A DNA stretch of 64,000 nucleotides from Escherichia coli (GTDB taxonomy: Bacteria; Pseudomonadota; Gammaproteobacteria; Enterobacterales; Enterobacteriaceae): the NCBI RefSeq assembly GCF_029227855.1, contig NZ_CP074356.1; one strand, 5' to 3'. This document shows positions 39,281-48,598 of the stretch, piece by piece. Each line of letters starts with the position of its first letter. Positions within the stretch are counted from its first letter, which is position 1. A model generated the notes under the pieces. It was not told the origin of the DNA. It was given only the letters and a program-made list of their open reading frames with translations, and did not search any database. The translations under genes and the position numbers were made by a program.

Positions 39281-40735
39281 ATGTCTTTATCTCGCGCAGC
39301 GATTGTCGACCAGCTAAAGGAAATTGTTGGTGCAGATCGCGTAATTACCGATGAAACAGTATTAAAGAAAAACAGTATTGACCGTTTTCGCAAATTTCCG
39401 GATATTCATGGCATTTATACTTTGCCGATTCCGGCAGCGGTCGTAAAACTCGGTTCCACAGAACAAGTATCCCGTGTGCTGAATTTTATGAATGCGCACA
39501 AAATTAACGGTGTGCCGCGTACCGGTGCTTCCGCTACCGAAGGTGGGCTGGAAACCGTTGTGGAAAACTCGGTGGTGCTCGACGGCTCCGCCATGAATCA
39601 AATCATTAATATTGATATTGAGAATATGCAGGCCACGGCGCAATGTGGCGTTCCGCTGGAGGTGCTGGAAAACGCGTTGCGTGAAAAAGGTTACACCACG
39701 GGGCATTCTCCGCAGTCAAAGCCGCTGGCGCAGATGGGCGGCCTGGTAGCAACCCGCAGTATCGGGCAGTTCTCCACACTCTACGGCGCAATCGAAGATA
39801 TGGTCGTTGGTCTGGAAGCAGTACTGGCAGATGGCACCGTAACACGCATTAAAAACGTACCACGCCGCGCGGCAGGCCCGGACATTCGTCACATCATCAT
39901 CGGCAACGAAGGTGCATTGTGCTATATCACTGAAGTAACTGTGAAAATCTTTAAGTTCACCCCGGAAAACAACCTCTTCTACGGCTATATCCTGGAAGAC
40001 ATGAAAACCGGCTTCAACATCCTGCGTGAAATCATGGTGGAAGGGTATCGTCCGTCGATCGCTCGTTTGTATGACGCTGAAGATGGCACCCAACACTTCA
40101 CCTATTTTGCCGATGGTAAATGTGTGCTGATCTTTATGGCTGAAGGTAACCCTCGCATTGCGAAGGCGACAGGCGAAGGGATTGCGGAAATCGTGGCACG
40201 TTACCCGCAATGCCAGCGAGTGGACAGCAAGCTGATCGAAACCTGGTTTAATCACCTGAACTGGGGGCCGGATAAAGTGGCCGCTGAACGTGTGCAGATC
40301 CTCAAAACCGGCAACATGGGCTTTACCACCGAAGTGTCCGGCTGCTGGAGCTGCATCCACGAAATCTACGAAAGCGTTATTAACCGTATTCGTACCGAGT
40401 TCCCGCACGCCGACGACATCACCATGCTGGGCGGTCACTCCTCTCACAGCTACCAGAACGGTACCAACATGTACTTCGTTTACGACTACAACGTTGTTGA
40501 CTGTAAGCCGGAAGAGGAAATCGACAAGTACCACAATCCGCTCAACAAAATCATCTGCGAAGAAACCATTCGCCTCGGCGGTTCGATGGTGCACCACCAC
40601 GGTATTGGTAAACATCGCGTTCACTGGAGCAAACTGGAACACGGCAGCGCGTGGACGTTGCTGGAAGGTTTGAAAAAACAGTTCGATCCTAACGGCATTA
40701 TGAATACGGGTACTATCTATCCGATTGAAAAATAA
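39281..40735 (+). CDS. ygcU: FAD-linked oxidase (alkyl-DHAP synthase / D-lactate dehydrogenase-like), 484 aa
   Basis: ORF track 484 aa; FAD-binding PCMH-type domain features. Confidence 0.85.
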   Translation: MSLSRAAIVDQLKEIVGADRVITDETVLKKNSIDRFRKFPDIHGIYTLPIPAAVVKLGSTEQVSRVLNFMNAHKINGVPRTGASATEGGLETVVENSVVLDGSAMNQIINIDIENMQATAQCGVPLEVLENALREKGYTTGHSPQSKPLAQMGGLVATRSIGQFSTLYGAIEDMVVGLEAVLADGTVTRIKNVPRRAAGPDIRHIIIGNEGALCYITEVTVKIFKFTPENNLFYGYILEDMKTGFNILREIMVEGYRPSIARLYDAEDGTQHFTYFADGKCVLIFMAEGNPRIAKATGEGIAEIVARYPQCQRVDSKLIETWFNHLNWGPDKVAAERVQILKTGNMGFTTEVSGCWSCIHEIYESVINRIRTEFPHADDITMLGGHSSHSYQNGTNMYFVYDYNVVDCKPEEEIDKYHNPLNKIICEETIRLGGSMVHHHGIGKHRVHWSKLEHGSAWTLLEGLKKQFDPNGIMNTGTIYPIEK

Positions 40736-40827
40736 TGTGTGAGGCAGCGTTCCGCTATGAGGGGCGTTGCCTTTTCGGCTTCTCAGGCGAGAAGCCGTTC
40801 TTATTACCGGACAATGAAGGGGTAAAG

Positions 40828-42165
40828 ATGAACACTTCACCGGTGCGAATGGATGATTTACCGCTTAACCGTTTTCACTGTCGAATTGCTGCGCTCACTT
40901 TCGGCGCGCACCTGACCGACGGTTATGTTCTCGGCGTCATTGGTTACGCCATTATTCAGCTTACGCCCGCCATGCAACTGACGCCGTTTATGGCGGGAAT
41001 GATTGGCGGCTCGGCGCTACTTGGCCTGTTTATCGGTAGCCTGGTTTTGGGGTGGATCTCCGACTATATTGGTCGGCAAAAAATCTTCACCTTCAGCTTT
41101 TTGCTGATTACGCTCGCTTCGTTCTTGCAATTTTTTGCCACCACTCCAGAGCATCTTATTGGACTACGCATTTTGATCGGCATTGGTCTGGGAGGCGATT
41201 ACTCAGTCGGTCACACCTTGCTGGCTGAATTTTCCCCGCGCCGCCATCGCGGTATTTTGCTTGGCGCATTCAGTGTGGTGTGGACCGTAGGCTATGTGCT
41301 GGCAAGTATTGCCGGACATCACTTTATTAGCGAAAGCCCGGAGGCCTGGCGCTGGCTGCTGGCATCAGCGGCGTTACCAGCCTTGCTGATTACGCTGCTA
41401 CGTTGGGGAACGCCAGAATCGCCACGCTGGCTACTGCGCCAGGGGCGTTTTGCAGAAGCTCACGCTATCGTGCATCGCTATTTTGGTCCCCATGTTTTAC
41501 TGGGCGATGAAGTGGCAACAGCGACCCATAAACACATCAAAACCTTGTTCTCTTCGCGCTACTGGCGGCGCACAGCGTTTAACAGCGTCTTCTTTGTCTG
41601 CCTAGTAATCCCATGGTTTGTGATTTATACCTGGCTGCCAACTATCGCCCAAACTATTGGTCTGGAAGATGCGCTGACCGCTAGCCTGATGCTTAATGCG
41701 TTGTTAATTGTGGGCGCGCTGCTGGGATTAGTTCTGACGCACCTGCTGGCACATCGCAAATTTTTGCTGGGAAGTTTTTTGTTGCTGGCGGCAACGCTGG
41801 TAGTAATGGCCTGTTTGCCTTCCGGCAGTTCATTAACGCTGCTGCTTTTTGTTCTCTTCAGCACCACCATTTCGGCAGTCAGTAATCTGGTGGGCATTTT
41901 GCCTGCGGAAAGTTTTCCTACTGACATTCGCTCGCTGGGCGTCGGTTTTGCCACCGCCATGAGTCGGTTGGGCGCGGCGGTAAGTACTGGCCTGCTGCCG
42001 TGGGTGCTGGCGCAGTGGGGAATGCAAGTCACCTTATTGCTCCTGGCGGCAGTGTTGTTGGTTGGTTTTGTCGTGACCTGGCTATGGGCACCAGAAACCA
42101 AAGCACTCCCGCTGGTGGCGGCGGGAAATGTTGGAGGTGCGAATGAACATTCTGTTAGCGTTTAA
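40828..42165 (+). CDS. ygcS: MFS transporter (sugar-porter-like), 445 aa
   Basis: ORF track 476 aa trimmed to MNTSPVRMDDLPLN (ATG 40828, GAAGGGG RBS). Confidence 0.85.
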   Translation: MNTSPVRMDDLPLNRFHCRIAALTFGAHLTDGYVLGVIGYAIIQLTPAMQLTPFMAGMIGGSALLGLFIGSLVLGWISDYIGRQKIFTFSFLLITLASFLQFFATTPEHLIGLRILIGIGLGGDYSVGHTLLAEFSPRRHRGILLGAFSVVWTVGYVLASIAGHHFISESPEAWRWLLASAALPALLITLLRWGTPESPRWLLRQGRFAEAHAIVHRYFGPHVLLGDEVATATHKHIKTLFSSRYWRRTAFNSVFFVCLVIPWFVIYTWLPTIAQTIGLEDALTASLMLNALLIVGALLGLVLTHLLAHRKFLLGSFLLLAATLVVMACLPSGSSLTLLLFVLFSTTISAVSNLVGILPAESFPTDIRSLGVGFATAMSRLGAAVSTGLLPWVLAQWGMQVTLLLLAAVLLVGFVVTWLWAPETKALPLVAAGNVGGANEHSVSV

Positions 42166-42922
42166 AGCCGAACCGGATGCCGGAATGCTGGCGGAAAAAG
42201 AGTGGCAGGCGGCGGCTCAGGGTAATAGCGGACCGGATGTTTCGCTTCTGCGAAGTTTGCTCGGTGCTGATGAACAGGCTGCCGCCGCGCTGCTGATGGC
42301 GCAGAGAAAAAACGGTACGTCGATGTCTTTAACCGCGTTGAGCATGGGGGATGAACGGGCGTTGCACTGGCTGCGCTATCTTATGGCTCTTGGGTTTGAG
42401 GAAGCTGTATTGCTGGAGACGGCGGCAGATCTGCGCTTTGCGCCGGAATTTGTCGCTCGCCATATTGCCGAATGGCAGAACCAGAATCCGCTGGAGCTGA
42501 TAATTACTGGCTGCCAAAGCAGCGAAGGGCAGAATGGGCAAACGCCATTTTTGCTGGCGGAAATGCTGGGCTGGCCCTGCTTCACCCAGGTGGAGCGTTT
42601 TACTCTCGACGCGCCGTTTATCACCCTTGAACAGCGTACTGAAAACGGGCTGCGCTGTTGCCGGGTTCGCTTGCCTGCGGTGATTGCCGTGCGTCAGTGC
42701 GGTGAAGTGGCCTTGCCAGTACCGGGAATGCGTCAGCGAATGGCGGCGGGGAAAGCAGCAATTATCCGTAAAACTGTTGCTGCCGAATCGCCAGCGATGC
42801 AGTGTCTGCAACTGGCAAGAGCAGAGCAACAACGCGGAGCGACGCTGATTGATGGGCAAACGGTAGCAGAAAAAGCGCAAAAGCTATGGCAGGACTATTT
42901 ACGCCAAAGGATGCAGCCATGA
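42143..42922 (+). CDS. ygcR: Electron-transfer flavoprotein beta-subunit-like (FixA family), 259 aa
   Basis: ORF track 264 aa trimmed to MNILLAFKAEPD; overlaps ygcS stop. Confidence 0.82.
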   Translation: MNILLAFKAEPDAGMLAEKEWQAAAQGNSGPDVSLLRSLLGADEQAAAALLMAQRKNGTSMSLTALSMGDERALHWLRYLMALGFEEAVLLETAADLRFAPEFVARHIAEWQNQNPLELIITGCQSSEGQNGQTPFLLAEMLGWPCFTQVERFTLDAPFITLEQRTENGLRCCRVRLPAVIAVRQCGEVALPVPGMRQRMAAGKAAIIRKTVAAESPAMQCLQLARAEQQRGATLIDGQTVAEKAQKLWQDYLRQRMQP

Positions 42923-43779
42923 ATATCGCAATTGTGACAATAAATCAGGAGAATGCCGCAATAGCGAGCTGGCTGGCAGAACAGGATTTCAGCGGTTGTA
43001 CCCTGGCACACTGGCAGATTGAACCTCAGCCCGTAGTGGCGGAACAGGTGCTGGATGCGCTGGTGGAACAGTGGCAGCGAACGCCTGCGGACGTTGTTCT
43101 CTTTCCGCCGGGAACGTTTGGCGATGAACTGTCGACCCGGCTGGCCTGGCGTTTACATGGAGCAAGCATCTGCCAGGTGACTTCGTTAGATATTCCAACC
43201 GTAAGCGTGCGCAAATCCCACTGGGGAAATGCGCTAACGGCGACGCTGCAAACAGAAAAACGCCCGCTATGCCTTTCCCTGGCGCGTCAGGCGGGAGCAG
43301 CGAAAAACGCCACGTTGCCCTCTGGTATGCAGCAACTGAACATTGTCCCAGGTGCGCTTCCCGACTGGCTGGTTAGCATAGAGAATCTGAAAAATGTTAG
43401 CCGCGACCCATTAGCTGAAGCCAGACGGGTGCTGGTGGTGGGGCAGGGCGGAGAGGCAGATAACCAGGAAATCGCTATGCTGGCAGAAAAGCTGGGAGCC
43501 GAAGTGGGCTACAGTCGGGCGCGAGTGATGAACGGTGGCGTTGATGCTGAAAAAGTGATTGGTATTTCCGGACATCTGCTGGCACCTGAGGTGTGTATTG
43601 TTGTTGGCGCTTCCGGCGCAGCAGCGTTAATGGCGGGCGTACGCAATAGCAAGTTTGTGGTGGCGATTAATCATGACGCCAGCGCAACGGTATTTTCACA
43701 GGCAGATGTTGGCGTGGTTGATGACTGGAAAGTGGTGCTGGAGGCACTGGTGACAAACATTCACGCAGAATGCCAATAA
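42919..43779 (+). CDS. ygcQ: Electron-transfer flavoprotein alpha-subunit-like (FixB family), 286 aa
   Basis: ORF track 297 aa trimmed to MNIAIVTINQ; ATGA overlap with ygcR stop. Confidence 0.82.
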   Translation: MNIAIVTINQENAAIASWLAEQDFSGCTLAHWQIEPQPVVAEQVLDALVEQWQRTPADVVLFPPGTFGDELSTRLAWRLHGASICQVTSLDIPTVSVRKSHWGNALTATLQTEKRPLCLSLARQAGAAKNATLPSGMQQLNIVPGALPDWLVSIENLKNVSRDPLAEARRVLVVGQGGEADNQEIAMLAEKLGAEVGYSRARVMNGGVDAEKVIGISGHLLAPEVCIVVGASGAAALMAGVRNSKFVVAINHDASATVFSQADVGVVDDWKVVLEALVTNIHAECQ

Positions 43780-43785
43780 CGTGCA

Positions 43786-43886
43786 GCCGGATGATCCTGC
43801 CTACGGTTCCGGGCTGGGGACTTGTAAGCCTGATAAGACGCGTCAAGCGTCGCATCAGGCGCTGAATGTCGGATGTTGCGTGCAGC
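43786..43886. repeat. REP/BIME-type palindromic units, including GCCTGATAAGACGCGTCAAGCGTCGCATCAGGC, between convergent ygcQ and ygcP
   Basis: Palindromic REP sequence read directly; near-identical copy at 50331-50362. Confidence 0.7.
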
Positions 43887-43925
43887 CTACAAATCACACA
43901 AATTCAACTCGTTACGAGTATCCCG

Positions 43926-44501
43926 TCAAAGCAATTTTTTCGCTAACGTCCAGACCCCGGTATTCGTGGTGGAAAGCGCCACAACACCCGCGTTAATCGC
44001 ATTACGCGCATCTTCTTCATCGCACACCAGCCCGCCGGCAATCAGCGGTTGGCGGATTTTCTCCGTCACCCAGCCCAGCACTTTAGGCATACAGCCTGGC
44101 AGGATCTCAATACAATCCGGATTCGATTGCGCAACTTGCTTATCAATGTTGTGAAACGAAATCGAATCAACAATAAACAGGCGATGAATACAGAAAAAAC
44201 CTTCCGCTCTTGCCGCTTTCAGCATCGATGCTTTCGTGCTGATAATGCCGTCCGCCTCGGTCACCAGTTTCAGAAACTGAATCACCACTTCTTTGTTCGA
44301 TGCGCCTTCCAGCAAATCAACATGAATAAAAGCATATTTCCCGGCGTTCTTAATCTTTTTAACGATATTACTGATGGTGCAGATATTGCCGTACAACACT
44401 GAAATAAACTGGCATTCAGAATCGATTGCCAGTTGCAGGCTGGCATTATCTTTAACGGCAGCAATCACCGGATTCTGGCGGAGCAGGTGTAAGAGGGGCA
44501 T
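43926..44501 (-). CDS. ygcP: GlpP-family putative transcription antiterminator, 191 aa
   Basis: ORF track 191 aa MPLLHLLRQNPVIAAVKDNASLQLAID... Confidence 0.82.
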   Translation of the reverse strand: MPLLHLLRQNPVIAAVKDNASLQLAIDSECQFISVLYGNICTISNIVKKIKNAGKYAFIHVDLLEGASNKEVVIQFLKLVTEADGIISTKASMLKAARAEGFFCIHRLFIVDSISFHNIDKQVAQSNPDCIEILPGCMPKVLGWVTEKIRQPLIAGGLVCDEEDARNAINAGVVALSTTNTGVWTLAKKLL

Positions 44502-44517
44502 AAATTATCCTTATTAT

Positions 44518-44778
44518 TTATCCAAAGCGGTAGGTGATGCCGAATCCGGAAGGCGGATAGCGCCACTGTTGTAGTGTTGATTCGTCGCACAGCAAACGGC
44601 AGGTGCCACACTCCAGGCAGCCGCGATAATCAACGCGTAAGTCACCTTCCGGTGTGAGCGAAAAAAGACCAGCTGGACAAGCGTTAATCAACCGTTGTAC
44701 CGTCTGGCGCTCAACGGAGTCAGCCGGAACAATGTGCGGCGCATCGGCAACGCGCCAGAGATTACGGGCTACAGACAT
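44518..44778 (-). CDS. ygcO: Ferredoxin-like protein (FixX family), 86 aa
   Basis: ORF track 98 aa trimmed to MSVARNLWRVADAPH; cysteine motifs CPAG / CLECGTC. Confidence 0.8.
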   Translation of the reverse strand: MSVARNLWRVADAPHIVPADSVERQTVQRLINACPAGLFSLTPEGDLRVDYRGCLECGTCRLLCDESTLQQWRYPPSGFGITYRFG

Positions 44779-46040
44779 CGCAGACTCCTGATAACATCGC
44801 CCGCCAGATGCCACAGGCCGTGACGACGTAAATGACGCCAGAATAACTGGCGCAGCGGTGGAACAGGTTTATCACCCTGATCCCATAAATCACGGGAAAT
44901 ATCCTGCATTAACGCAGGCCACGCACGGTACCATCCAGGGCGTTGCAAAAGCGCCGGAACATGCTGATAACGTTGTAGAACATCCCATAGCAGGCTGCGC
45001 TCTACGTTGTGATGATAAAGCGCAAACAGATTTTGCGGCTCGCGGTGCTGGCAGGCGCTTATCAGCGTTTGTGCCGCCGCCTGCGCGCCAGTCAGCGCCA
45101 TATCCATGCCGCGCACGGAAATTCCGGTATTGACGCAACTGCGCAACGCATCGCCCACCAGCAGCCAGCCGTTACCGGCGTATTGCACCGGCATACTGTG
45201 CAAGCCACCTTCTGGCACCAGATGCGCACCATACTCCAGTGATTCCGTGTTTTTGATAAGCGGGCGCACTGCCGGATGCGTTTTAAAGCGAGCCAGCAGC
45301 TCGCTTGCCGGAACACGACTTTGCGTAAGGGAAGAGAGCGGGCAAACAATCCCTAACGAGAGCGTTTGTTGATTAGTATAAAGAAATGCGCCGCCGGGTA
45401 AGTCATCACAGATCCCGCCGCTGAACAGCAACGCTGCGCCTTCGTTATTCTCCAGATGAAAACGTTCTTCAATAGCGGATGTTTCCAGCGACAGCACTTC
45501 TTTGATCCCCAACGCCATCGCTTCGCCAGCAGGACGAGTCACTAACCCGTGACGTTCAGCCAGGACGCTGTTGGCACCTTCTGCCAGCACCACATAACGG
45601 GCGCGGAGAATATCGTCACCACAAATGACACCACACACCCTGCCGTTTTCTTCATACAGCGCATCCACCGTCGCACCGGGGATGCATTCGACACCTTCTT
45701 TTTCGGCTTCGGCAACCAGCCACGGATCGAACCGTGCACGTAATACACTCCAGGATTCACGGCCGGGCTGTAAGCTGGAAAACGTCGTTGCGCCATCCGG
45801 CGTTAGCAGAGAAAGGCTTTCGTGAGTGATGCGTCGTTCAAGAGGCGCGGTCAGATGAAATTGCGGGAGGAGTTCCGCGAGCGCATGGGTGTATAAACGC
45901 CCGCCGGAAAGATTTTTGCTGCCGGGGATTTCAGCGCGTTCCAGTAACAGAACGGACAAACCTGCCCGCGTGCAGCGTAACGCGCAAGCGGTGCCTGCTA
46001 TACCCGCACCAATAATAATAATGTCGCAGTTGTCTTCCAT
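44769..46040 (-). CDS. ygcN: FAD-dependent oxidoreductase (FixC / ETF-QO-like), 423 aa
   Basis: ORF track 433 aa trimmed to MEDNCDIIIIGAGIAG (FAD-binding GxGxxG). Confidence 0.82.
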   Translation of the reverse strand: MEDNCDIIIIGAGIAGTACALRCTRAGLSVLLLERAEIPGSKNLSGGRLYTHALAELLPQFHLTAPLERRITHESLSLLTPDGATTFSSLQPGRESWSVLRARFDPWLVAEAEKEGVECIPGATVDALYEENGRVCGVICGDDILRARYVVLAEGANSVLAERHGLVTRPAGEAMALGIKEVLSLETSAIEERFHLENNEGAALLFSGGICDDLPGGAFLYTNQQTLSLGIVCPLSSLTQSRVPASELLARFKTHPAVRPLIKNTESLEYGAHLVPEGGLHSMPVQYAGNGWLLVGDALRSCVNTGISVRGMDMALTGAQAAAQTLISACQHREPQNLFALYHHNVERSLLWDVLQRYQHVPALLQRPGWYRAWPALMQDISRDLWDQGDKPVPPLRQLFWRHLRRHGLWHLAGDVIRSLRCL

Positions 46041-46117
46041 GTCATGCCCCAGATATCCAGAACACAACACCCTAACATGGCGTTACTTAAGGGAAATTGA
46101 CCGCCGACACACTCTTA

Positions 46118-46483
46118 TCATTCGCCGCGATAGATACAGCCTGCAGTACAGGTTTCTTTTACCATCACCGCACTTAACAGCGGCACAACCGGTTTAACTT
46201 GATCCCAAATCCATTTTGCTAAAACTTCGCTGGTTGGGTTTTCCAGACCTGGAATATCATTGAGATAATGGTGATCGAGACGCTCGTAGGTTGGCTTAAA
46301 CGCCGCTTTCAGTTCAGCGAAATCGATAATCCAGCCCGTATGCGGATCGACTTCCCCGGTGATTTCCAGTCGCACCATAAAGGAATGCCCGTGCAGGCGA
46401 CCACATTTATGCCCTTCCGGGACGTGTGGTAAGCGGTGAGCGGCTTCGAAGGTGAAATCTTTAAATAACGTGGTGGACATCAT
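46118..46483 (-). CDS. queD: 6-carboxy-5,6,7,8-tetrahydropterin synthase, 121 aa
   Basis: ORF track 149 aa trimmed to [33 protein letters not shown]. Confidence 0.9.
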
Positions 46484-46798
46484 AATTTCTCTACAGGACG
46501 ATAAAACCGCCGTAGAGTACCGGAAAGCCTGTTTTTTCGCATTACTAAAAACGGGTTTGTTGCGCAAAATGACCGATTTAACTTAATTGTGGCCGATATT
46601 TATCTATTTTTCATAGAGTTAATAAATCTATTTTGTTGTTAAAGACTATTGCTAAAACAGGTTAGTCGATTTGGTTATTAGTTATCGCTATCCCGTCTTT
46701 AATCCATCCCCTTCGCGCCGTTAACCTTACCTTCTCTTCTGTTTTATGGGCGCTGACAGGGCCGATAAACAGCTTTGCTTACTGGAACATAACGACGC

Positions 46799-48598
46799 AT
46801 GACGACACAGGTCCCACCTTCCGCTTTGCTTCCGCTGAACCCGGAGCAACTGGCACGCCTCCAGGCGGCCACAACCGATTTAACGCCCACCCAGCTTGCC
46901 TGGGTTTCTGGCTATTTCTGGGGAGTGCTTAACCAGCAACCTGCTGCGCTTGCAGCGACGCCAGCTCCTGGTGCAGAAATGCCGGGTATAACGATTATCT
47001 CTGCTTCGCAAACCGGCAATGCGCGTCGGGTCGCCGAAGCATTACGCGATGATTTATTAGCGGCAAAACTGAACGTTAAGCTGGTGAACGCGGGCGACTA
47101 TAAATTCAAACAAATCGCCAGTGAAAAACTGCTTATCGTGGTGACGTCAACACAAGGGGAAGGGGAGCCGCCGGAAGAAGCCGTCGCGCTGCATAAGTTC
47201 CTGTTCTCCAAAAAAGCGCCGAAGCTGGAAAACACCTCGTTTGCTGTGTTTAGCCTCGGCGATAGCTCTTATGAATTTTTCTGCCAGTCCGGGAAAGATT
47301 TCGACAGCAAGCTGGCGGAACTTGGCGGTGAACGCCTGCTCGATCGTGTCGATGCCGATGTTGAATACCAGGCTGCCGCCAGCGAATGGCGCGCCCGCGT
47401 GGTTGATGTACTGAAATCGCGCGCGCCTGTCGCAGCACCTTCACAATCCGTCGCCACTGGTGCGGTGAATGAAATCCACACCAGCCCATACAGCAAAGAA
47501 GCGCCGCTGGTGGCGAGTCTCTCTGTTAACCAGAGAATTACTGGACGTAACTCTGAAAAAGACGTTCGCCATATCGAAATTGACTTAGGCGACTCTGGCC
47601 TGCGTTATCAGCCGGGCGATGCGCTGGGTGTCTGGTATCAGAACGATCCGGCACTGGTTAAAGAACTTGTCGAACTGCTGTGGCTGAAAGGCGATGAACC
47701 CGTCACCGTTGATGGCAAAACGCTGACTCTGAGTGAAGCGCTACAGTGGCATTTTGAATTGACGGTTAACACCGCCAACATCGTTGAGAACTACGCCACG
47801 CTTACCCGCAGTGAAACGCTGCTACCACTGGTGGGCGATAAAGCGAAATTGCAGCATTACGCCGCGACCACCCCAATTGTCGACATGGTGCGTTTCTCTC
47901 CGGCGCAACTGGATGCCGAAGCGCTGATTAATCTGCTGCGTCCGCTGACCCCGCGCCTGTATTCCATCGCCTCCTCGCAGGCGGAAGTCGAGAACGAAGT
48001 ACATGTCACCGTTGGTGTGGTGCGTTACGACGTGGAAGGCCGAGCCCGTGCCGGTGGTGCCTCCAGCTTCCTCGCGGATCGCGTGGAAGAAGAGGGTGAA
48101 GTCCGCGTCTTTATCGAACATAACGATAACTTCCGCCTGCCAGCCAATCCGGAAACGCCGGTGATTATGATTGGCCCAGGCACCGGCATCGCGCCGTTCC
48201 GCGCCTTTATGCAGCAACGCGCCGCCGACGAAGCGCCGGGGAAAAACTGGCTGTTCTTTGGCAACCCGCACTTTACGGAAGATTTCCTCTACCAGGTGGA
48301 ATGGCAGCGCTACGTCAAAGAGGGCGTGCTGACGCGTATCGATCTTGCCTGGTCGCGCGATCAAAAAGAAAAAATTTACGTACAAGACAAACTGCGCGAA
48401 CAGGGCGCAGAGCTGTGGCGCTGGATCAATGACGGTGCCCACATTTATGTCTGCGGCGACGCTAATCGCATGGCGAAAGACGTTGAGCAGGCACTTCTGG
48501 AAGTGATTGCCGAATTTGGTGGCATGGACACCGAAGCGGCGGATGAATTTTTAAGTGAGCTGCGCGTAGAGCGCCGTTATCAGCGAGATGTCTACTAA
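46799..48598 (+). CDS. cysJ: Sulfite reductase (NADPH) flavoprotein alpha subunit, 599 aa
   Basis: ORF track 599 aa [24 protein letters not shown]... Confidence 0.96.

Follow-up and report, generated by a model that had tools for sequence, protein, structure and literature searches.

A conserved hairpin with a U-rich tail between ygcU and ygcS of Escherichia coli: a candidate leaky terminator within the ygcW–ygcQ operon

Gene order and hairpins of the ygcU–ygcS junction

The entire ygc cluster, an uncharacterized catabolic locus of Escherichia coli, shows synteny throughout Enterobacterales. The cluster was analyzed in a stretch of E. coli DNA of 64,000 nucleotides (the window), and all positions refer to this stretch unless K-12 is named. 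The genes of the locus are arranged as follows.

35324–36802, minus strand: ygcE, a kinase gene transcribed divergently from ygcW
36829–38106, minus strand: yqcE, a transporter gene
38426–39211, plus strand: ygcW, a short-chain dehydrogenase gene (Pfam)
39281–40735, plus strand: ygcU, an FAD-linked oxidase gene with the FAD_binding_4 and FAD-oxidase_C domains (Pfam)
40733–40735, plus strand: TAA stop codon of ygcU
40828–42165, plus strand: ygcS, a sugar-type MFS transporter gene (Pfam)
40828–40830, plus strand: ATG start codon of ygcS
42143–42922, plus strand: ygcR, an electron-transfer flavoprotein subunit gene (Pfam)
42919–43779, plus strand: ygcQ, an electron-transfer flavoprotein subunit gene (Pfam)
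43926–44501, minus strand: ygcP, encoding a full-length GlpP-family protein (PF04309, E = 1e-62)
beyond ygcP, minus strand: ygcO and ygcN, encoding electron-transfer flavoproteins (YgcNO)

The genes ygcS, ygcR and ygcQ overlap each other and look translationally coupled. The gap between ygcU and ygcS spans 92 nt (40736–40827), in agreement with how RefSeq annotates an identical E. coli record. In that record, a CRISPR array was annotated just past ygcE, reaching position 34686 of the window approximately. Between the convergent genes ygcQ and ygcP (43785–43909), REP-like palindromes were observed, with weak matches to the Rfam family naRNA4 that remained below the gathering score. The end of the ygcW–ygcQ operon showed no canonical terminator, and no account of the function of ygcP was found in the literature searched.

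The distribution of the junction among E. coli genomes was also evaluated. The 801 bases around the central hairpin of the gap (HP2) were 100% identical to those of E. coli JNEC-KY178, and of the 5426 complete E. coli genomes, 5093 carried this region, each as a single copy. Identity to the window of 99% or more in the ygcU–ygcS region (40400–41200) was reached by only approximately 50 of these 5093 genomes, and most were 95–96% identical; these values point to a divergent allele or lineage for this part of the window. In K-12 MG1655, HP2 was identical to that of the window, and the ygcU–ygcS gap had 93 nt.

The complete gap, TGTGTGAGGCAGCGTTCCGCTATGAGGGGCGTTGCCTTTTCGGCTTCTCAGGCGAGAAGCCGTTCTTATTACCGGACAATGAAGGGGTAAAG, folded with an energy of −43.9 kcal/mol (z = −4.8) into three hairpins.

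40741–40773, plus strand: HP1, found in Escherichia only, 13 pairs including G-U and a 7-nt loop, followed by UUUUC
40776–40797, plus strand: HP2, CGGCUUCUC-AGGC-GAGAAGCCG, 9 bp including 6 G-C pairs, with a loop of 4 nt
40798–40805, plus strand: the interrupted U-rich tail of HP2, UUCUUAUU, with U at 6 of 8 positions
40804–40825, plus strand: HP3, a weak UUACC...GGUAA pairing of 5 bp with a 12-nt loop

The initial annotation of this gap had described a hairpin CGGCTTCTC-AGGC-GAGAAGCCG at 40776–40797 followed by TTCTTATT, and the sequence reads exactly so; its neighbors HP1 and HP3 had been missed. The two arms of HP2 (40776–40784 and 40789–40797) paired perfectly in the pattern scan, with 9 pairs of which 6 were G-C. 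The fold energy of HP2 was −15.6 kcal/mol, compared with −5.8 ± 2.3 kcal/mol for shuffled sequences (z = −4.3), and none of the 200 shuffles folded as well. Chance occurrence was evaluated by scanning for perfectly paired stems of 9 bp or more with loops of 3–8 nt and 5 or more T in the following 8 nt. Five distinct places of this type were found on the plus strand of the 64-kb window, whereas 0.15 were found per dinucleotide shuffle with both strands counted. The tail score T of the Escherichia hairpin was 2.94, and its terminator score d, which was of the d'Aubenton-Carafa type and calculated with modern energies, was borderline (approximately 2).

HP1 lies directly upstream of HP2 and starts 5–7 nt past the ygcU stop codon, depending on the number of closing pairs counted. 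It folded with −21.8 kcal/mol (z = −4.4), all changes among 8 Escherichia sequences were compatible with pairing, and its terminator score was weak (d of 4–15). HP1 was missing outside Escherichia; in other genera, either nothing or an ERIC-like insertion was found at its position. The stretch from the ygcU stop codon to HP2 is an insertion hot spot, with HP1 in Escherichia and ERIC-like elements in some other genera. ERIC-like palindromes of approximately 120–190 nt occurred in K. spallanzanii, Enterobacter 10-1 and Raoultella, and a short form occurred in C. koseri (four loci). The ygcW–ygcU gap also carries ERIC-like insertions in some of the ERIC-bearing genomes. HP3 spans the ygcS Shine-Dalgarno sequence GAAGGGG (40816–40822), was restricted to the Escherichia/Citrobacter/Klebsiella group and had slight covariation; a function of HP3 is doubtful.

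Several other features of the gap were considered and set aside. When 36000–47000 was scanned against Rfam (E up to 10), neither the ygcU–ygcS junction nor the leaders of ygcW and yqcE matched a family. HP1 and HP2 as repeat elements were rejected, as E. coli genomes contained each of them only once and neither was found on a true plasmid. A terminator acting on the opposite strand at HP2 was likewise rejected, because that side lacks a T run in Escherichia, and no antisense gene is present that a terminator could serve. In the strain of the window, the ygcS reading frame is open upstream as far as an ATG at 40735 that overlaps the ygcU stop codon (TAATG), which would add 31 codons, and a 22-codon open reading frame (40757–40825) crosses HP2. 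Neither frame is kept in K-12, in which the gap is one base longer, and both are probably meaningless.

Conservation of HP2 across genera

Related loci were collected by a scan with YgcU, in which one genome per species was used, and 57 loci were obtained. Two of them were of unexpected origin: a locus labeled as a Planctomycetota MAG had an Escherichia-type ygc locus with YgcU 99% identical, and the locus labeled as Chryseobacterium sp. 18061 was of the Enterobacteriaceae type. Both are probably contamination or mislabeling in public assemblies.

Orthologues of HP2 were found in approximately 28 Enterobacteriaceae genomes, just upstream of ygcS, with the pattern (A/C)CGGCTTCYC-loop-GRGAAGCCG(T). 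They occurred in Escherichia, Citrobacter, Klebsiella, Raoultella, Superficieibacter, Yokenella, Pluralibacter, Mixta, Entomohabitans and several Enterobacter, in each case after the ygcU stop codon and before the ribosome-binding site of ygcS. The covariance model of HP2 found exactly one copy per locus. In the alignment, the stems were kept while the loops and flanks varied freely, and 94.2% of the stem cells formed standard pairs; the pairing fell to approximately 50% in a control in which the 3' partners were slid out of register. Changes on both sides were found at 4 of the 10 pairs, such as C-G to U-A at the base and U-A to C-G in Superficieibacter, and the covariation score was reached by none of 500 shuffles. 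Moreover, the stem sequence itself (GGCUUC...GAAGCC) was conserved beyond the need of pairing alone. The structure, position, conservation and covariation of HP2 could be established directly in this way. On these grounds, HP2 is regarded with high confidence as a real element under selection.

In more distant genera, a hairpin other than HP2 was found at the junction. In the Cedecea group, Limnobaculum, Budvicia and Serratia, an unrelated GC hairpin with a T run occupied the same position, and every genome with ygcS after ygcU had a GC-rich hairpin with a T-rich tail in between, the direct U run being missing in some. The operon's other junction, ygcW–ygcU, was AT-rich and had no stable hairpin. 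Among 28 distinct orthologous hairpins, the 8 nt after the stem contained 4.5 T on average, whereas 1.9 were expected. The direct U run was clear in C. sedlakii, Pluralibacter, Mixta and Citrobacter MGH106, and the terminator score was high in C. sedlakii (d = 44) and in Pluralibacter (d = 34, 11 bp plus T6). By contrast, the hairpin was kept with no direct U run in C. amalonaticus/braakii, C. koseri and Enterobacter 10-1 (d of −39 to −44), where the stem was followed by CAATTTTA, CGACTTTA and CCTTTACC, respectively. Hence, the hairpin is conserved even where canonical termination looks poor, and a role in protecting or processing 3' ends was kept, both as a component of the preferred reading and as a rival to it. 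In lineages whose unit ends with ygcU (Erwinia, Pantoea, Ewingella and the Serratia proteamaculans group), a terminator follows directly after this gene. A terminator at the end of ygcWU thus looks long-standing.

Antiterminator element of the ygcW and yqcE leaders

The initial annotation had proposed HP2 as a second target of antitermination. The elements that bear on this proposal were found in the two divergent leaders of ygcW and yqcE.

38335–38403, plus strand: ygcW leader, with the element and terminator forming an antiterminator/terminator switch; consensus CAGUUACY-N15-RGUAACUUCYC
38120–38192, minus strand: yqcE leader, with the second copy of the element, UUACUAGAGACC-UGAGAAAAGUAA, then a terminator with U9

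The terminator of the ygcW leader has 19 bp and U9 (38353–38394 and following). A 35-nt element, CCAGUUACC-AGAGAUAAUGAGAAA-GGUAACUUCCC (with the N15 segment in the middle), overlaps its 5' arm and was almost invariant across Enterobacterales. The 7-bp helix of this element and the terminator are mutually exclusive. The helix was 99.5% paired and covaried, with C-G exchanged for U-A in 12 of the 27 distinct sequences. The covariance model built on the element gave 61 bits on the ygcW leader. The only other significant match in the 64-kb window was in the yqcE leader (38192–38169, minus strand, 20.5 bits, E = 0.004), and the yqcE-leader element scored as high as 54 bits in other genera. In a search of 56 related loci, the element was located at the ygcW and yqcE leaders, with the yqcE-leader copy in nearly all of them; it was also located upstream of ygcW/ygcU homologues in two loci of Firmicutes MAGs (L049, 3545–3578; L056, 5821–5854). 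In the ygcW leader, this element probably serves as the RNA target of the GlpP-like YgcP, and it appears to be undescribed.

Both leader terminators correspond to 3' ends mapped in K-12 by Term-seq (PMC7815308). The end at 2900311 (minus strand), 38 nt upstream of ygcW, had 40,640 reads and an intrinsic score of 15.8, and the end at 2900556 (plus strand), 36 nt upstream of yqcE, had 1,557 reads and an intrinsic score of 11.4; neither was Rho-dependent. A CRP site, cacTGTGAttacgaTCACAtta, lies between the divergent leaders at 38283–38304. It corresponds to a high-affinity CRP site at K-12 2900412 with a Kd of 1.7 nM (Footprint-seq preprint, PMC12871828). At the divergent leaders, initiation looks CRP-dependent, and elongation looks antiterminator-dependent.

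At the ygcU–ygcS junction, the leader-element model gave no match within 40736–40827 with E up to 10 and filters off, and no match in the 56 related loci with E up to 1. Since the element was present at the ygcW and yqcE leaders and never at the junction, the second target of the antiterminator would be the yqcE leader rather than HP2. This assignment of the antiterminator RNA targets to the ygcW and yqcE leaders is the more useful by-product of the analysis, and it sharpens work on YgcP.

Read-through at HP2 and comparison with known systems

The transcription of ygcSRQ was considered with respect to the space available at the junction. In the window, neither the gap nor its surroundings contained a promoter-like site. 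In many genera, here called short-gap genera, the ygcU–ygcS gap had only 52–62 nt, and the ygcS ATG followed the stem after 19–30 nt. The distance from the end of the stem to the ygcS ATG was 19–32 nt in the genera with HP2 or the Cedecea-type hairpin, and the ATG was only 21–29 nt past the stem in C. sedlakii and Pluralibacter. A promoter of ygcS itself was thus rejected as a candidate, given the lack of a promoter-like site and of room for one in the short-gap genera. Judged from the sequences, ygcSRQ would have no promoter of their own and would depend on read-through. As there is no room for a promoter in several genera, ygcSRQ would be transcribed through the hairpin, and the signal would hence be only partial or conditional, or would protect 3' ends, or both.

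The reading preferred here is that HP2 and its U-rich tail are a conserved leaky signal of the intrinsic terminator type and/or a 3'-end-protecting hairpin that sets the expression of ygcWU above that of ygcSRQ. This reading is considered probable by a modest measure. Transcripts that pass the regulated terminator of the ygcW leader would reach HP2 after ygcU, and a fraction of them would end there. HP2 would have to be leaky because ygcSRQ seem to have no other route to transcription. A 3'-terminal HP2, with its end arising either from termination or from a cut in the AU-rich tail, would probably also shield ygcWU from 3' exonucleases. The outcome would be a higher level of the enzymes (ygcW and ygcU) than of the transporter and the electron-transfer flavoprotein subunits (ygcS, ygcR and ygcQ). 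The initial annotation had suggested a partial terminator that sets operon polarity. The conserved hairpin and T-rich tail with compensatory changes, together with the forced read-through in the short-gap genera, agree with this suggestion; termination and stabilization at HP2, and the extent of each, are what we infer from these features.

The initial annotation had also named missing 3' ends at the hairpin as evidence against termination. Among the Term-seq tables examined from Adams et al. (2021; PMC7815308), none listed a 3' end near K-12 2897893–2897960, so this observation formally speaks against termination at HP2; the ygcW leader terminator was active in LB. The missing end at HP2 is uninformative because the upstream leader terminator was active in the conditions sampled. 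The operon was also not listed in the SMRT-Cappable-seq tables. A leader terminator that blocks transcription in laboratory media would account for both results.

The same expression outcome, with upstream genes above downstream genes, would also arise if HP2 acted purely on RNA stability or processing with the polymerase not terminating, either by blocking 3' exonucleases after an RNase E cut in the AU-rich tail or by protecting the 5' end of ygcSRQ. The retention of the hairpin in the genomes with no direct U run (C. amalonaticus/braakii, C. koseri and Enterobacter 10-1) and the interrupted tail of the Escherichia hairpin are consistent with such a role. However, the T enrichment after the stem was general across the orthologues, several orthologues resembled strong canonical terminators, and the lineages that lack ygcS had a terminator at the equivalent position. 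A purely stabilizing role is thus considered unlikely.

The distance of the hairpin from the ygcU stop codon may influence its efficiency. In the genera free of insertions, the spacing from stop codon to stem was 5–12 nt, mostly 8–10 nt, whereas HP2 of Escherichia starts 40 nt past the stop codon and the close position is taken by HP1. The tR2 terminator was nearly fully repressed at 8–9 bp from a stop codon and was maximally active at more than 30 bp, and the repression was attributed to masking of the hairpin by the terminating ribosome (Li et al., 2016; PMC4824070). Based on the ancestral close spacing and such masking, termination mainly of untranslated transcripts is predicted. In most genera, the terminating ribosome would suppress termination, and only untranslated transcripts would stop. 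In Escherichia, HP1 was inserted at the close position, and HP2 at 40 nt would work at its own weak intrinsic efficiency. An ancestral coupling to translation and its rewiring by HP1 in Escherichia is what we infer from these distances. A further reading, in which HP2 is a conditional checkpoint and not a fixed leak, is regarded as distinctly unlikely. In this reading, HP2 would be either a translation-sensing attenuator, conserved in Enterobacteriaceae, that admits the polymerase to ygcSRQ only if ygcU is translated (rewired by HP1 in Escherichia) or a degenerate YgcP-responsive terminator acting through the CUUCYC/GRGAAG apex.

A very unlikely explanation is that HP2 is a roleless leftover of an old terminator at the end of ygcWU, from before ygcSRQ joined the unit, or that it tunes the translation of ygcS through HP3 and the Shine-Dalgarno sequence. 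The lineages with no ygcS do close the unit with a terminator after ygcU, and HP3 does overlap the ygcS Shine-Dalgarno sequence. However, a functionless hairpin would not hold 94% pairing and compensatory changes amid freely diverging loops and flanks, and HP3 is weak, is not conserved outside one group and has little covariation.

Control of HP2 by YgcP, as a second conditional terminator, is highly improbable. YgcP is a full-length GlpP-family protein encoded beside the operon, and the motif CUUCYC/GRGAAG is common to HP2 and the apex of the ygcW-leader terminator, with weak cross-matches of the HP2 model (15–25 bits). In addition, a TTACC-N12-GGTAA pairing just downstream of HP2 resembles the leader helix, and this pattern occurred 3 times in the window, compared with 0.32 expected. 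However, the leader-element model selected the yqcE leader and nothing in the ygcU–ygcS gap, and this lack of the leader element at HP2 was observed directly. When 100 nt upstream and the 5' arm of HP2 were folded together in 18 genomes, only short and inconsistent competing pairings were found, so the arm has no conserved upstream competitor segment. The proposal of a second antitermination target is not supported, given these two results. Moreover, only 6–10 nt separate the ygcU stop codon from the stem in most genera, and a YgcP binding site would therefore fall in translated sequence. The TTACC/GGTAA pairing is located after the U tract, which would be too late to block termination, and half of the genera lack it. 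The reading of HP3 as a copy of the antiterminator helix in the leader was rejected, since the motif, although enriched, was not scored by the leader model and does not occur in half of the genera. The terminator of the yqcE leader has no CUUCCC apex, so the apex is not a shared recognition feature, and known GlpP targets are 5' leaders (PMC9604022).

If HP2 is a leaky terminator, ygcWU and ygcSRQ would be expressed at different, hard-wired levels. Such unequal levels would matter for the reconstruction and engineering of the pathway and for the reading of transcriptomes of the locus.

Intra-operon partial intrinsic terminators, or attenuators, exist in E. coli at rplL–rpoB and as T1 of rpsU–dnaG. 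HP2 resembles them: its GC-rich hairpin and U-rich tail separate cistrons of one transcription unit, in which the downstream genes need read-through and a fixed step-down of expression is expected. In contrast to these systems, the U tract of HP2 is interrupted in Escherichia, and the ygc operon is uncharacterized and silent in standard media, HP2 being known from its sequence. In the translation-coupled attenuators of rph–pyrE and pyrBI, the stop codon lies within approximately 10 nt of the stem. HP2 in most genera is similar, with the stem 6–10 nt past the stop codon, and both HP1 (5–7 nt) and the insertion-free HP2 lie within this range, whereas HP2 of Escherichia, at 40 nt, lies beyond it. 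The nucleotide-sensitive pausing or regulatory input of pyrE and pyrBI has no sign at HP2.

GlpP-type antitermination of the B. subtilis glpD, glpFK and glpTQ leaders likewise combines a GlpP-family gene, here ygcP within the cluster, with terminators that need read-through. The features of a leader target (the 35-nt element, an antiterminator helix on the 5' arm of the terminator and a site in a 5' leader) are found at the ygcW and yqcE leaders, and all of them are missing at HP2. The REP sequence of malE–malF is an intercistronic stabilizer hairpin, and HP2, as a stable intercistronic hairpin, could similarly protect the upstream mRNA from 3' exonucleases. Unlike REP/BIME or ERIC sequences, HP2 is single-copy and belongs to no repeat family, and the adjacent ERIC-like elements of some genera are separate from it. 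Taken together, these comparisons suggest that HP2 is most likely a fresh example of a well-known type of signal, which would serve the ordinary fine-tuning of an operon by lowering downstream expression.
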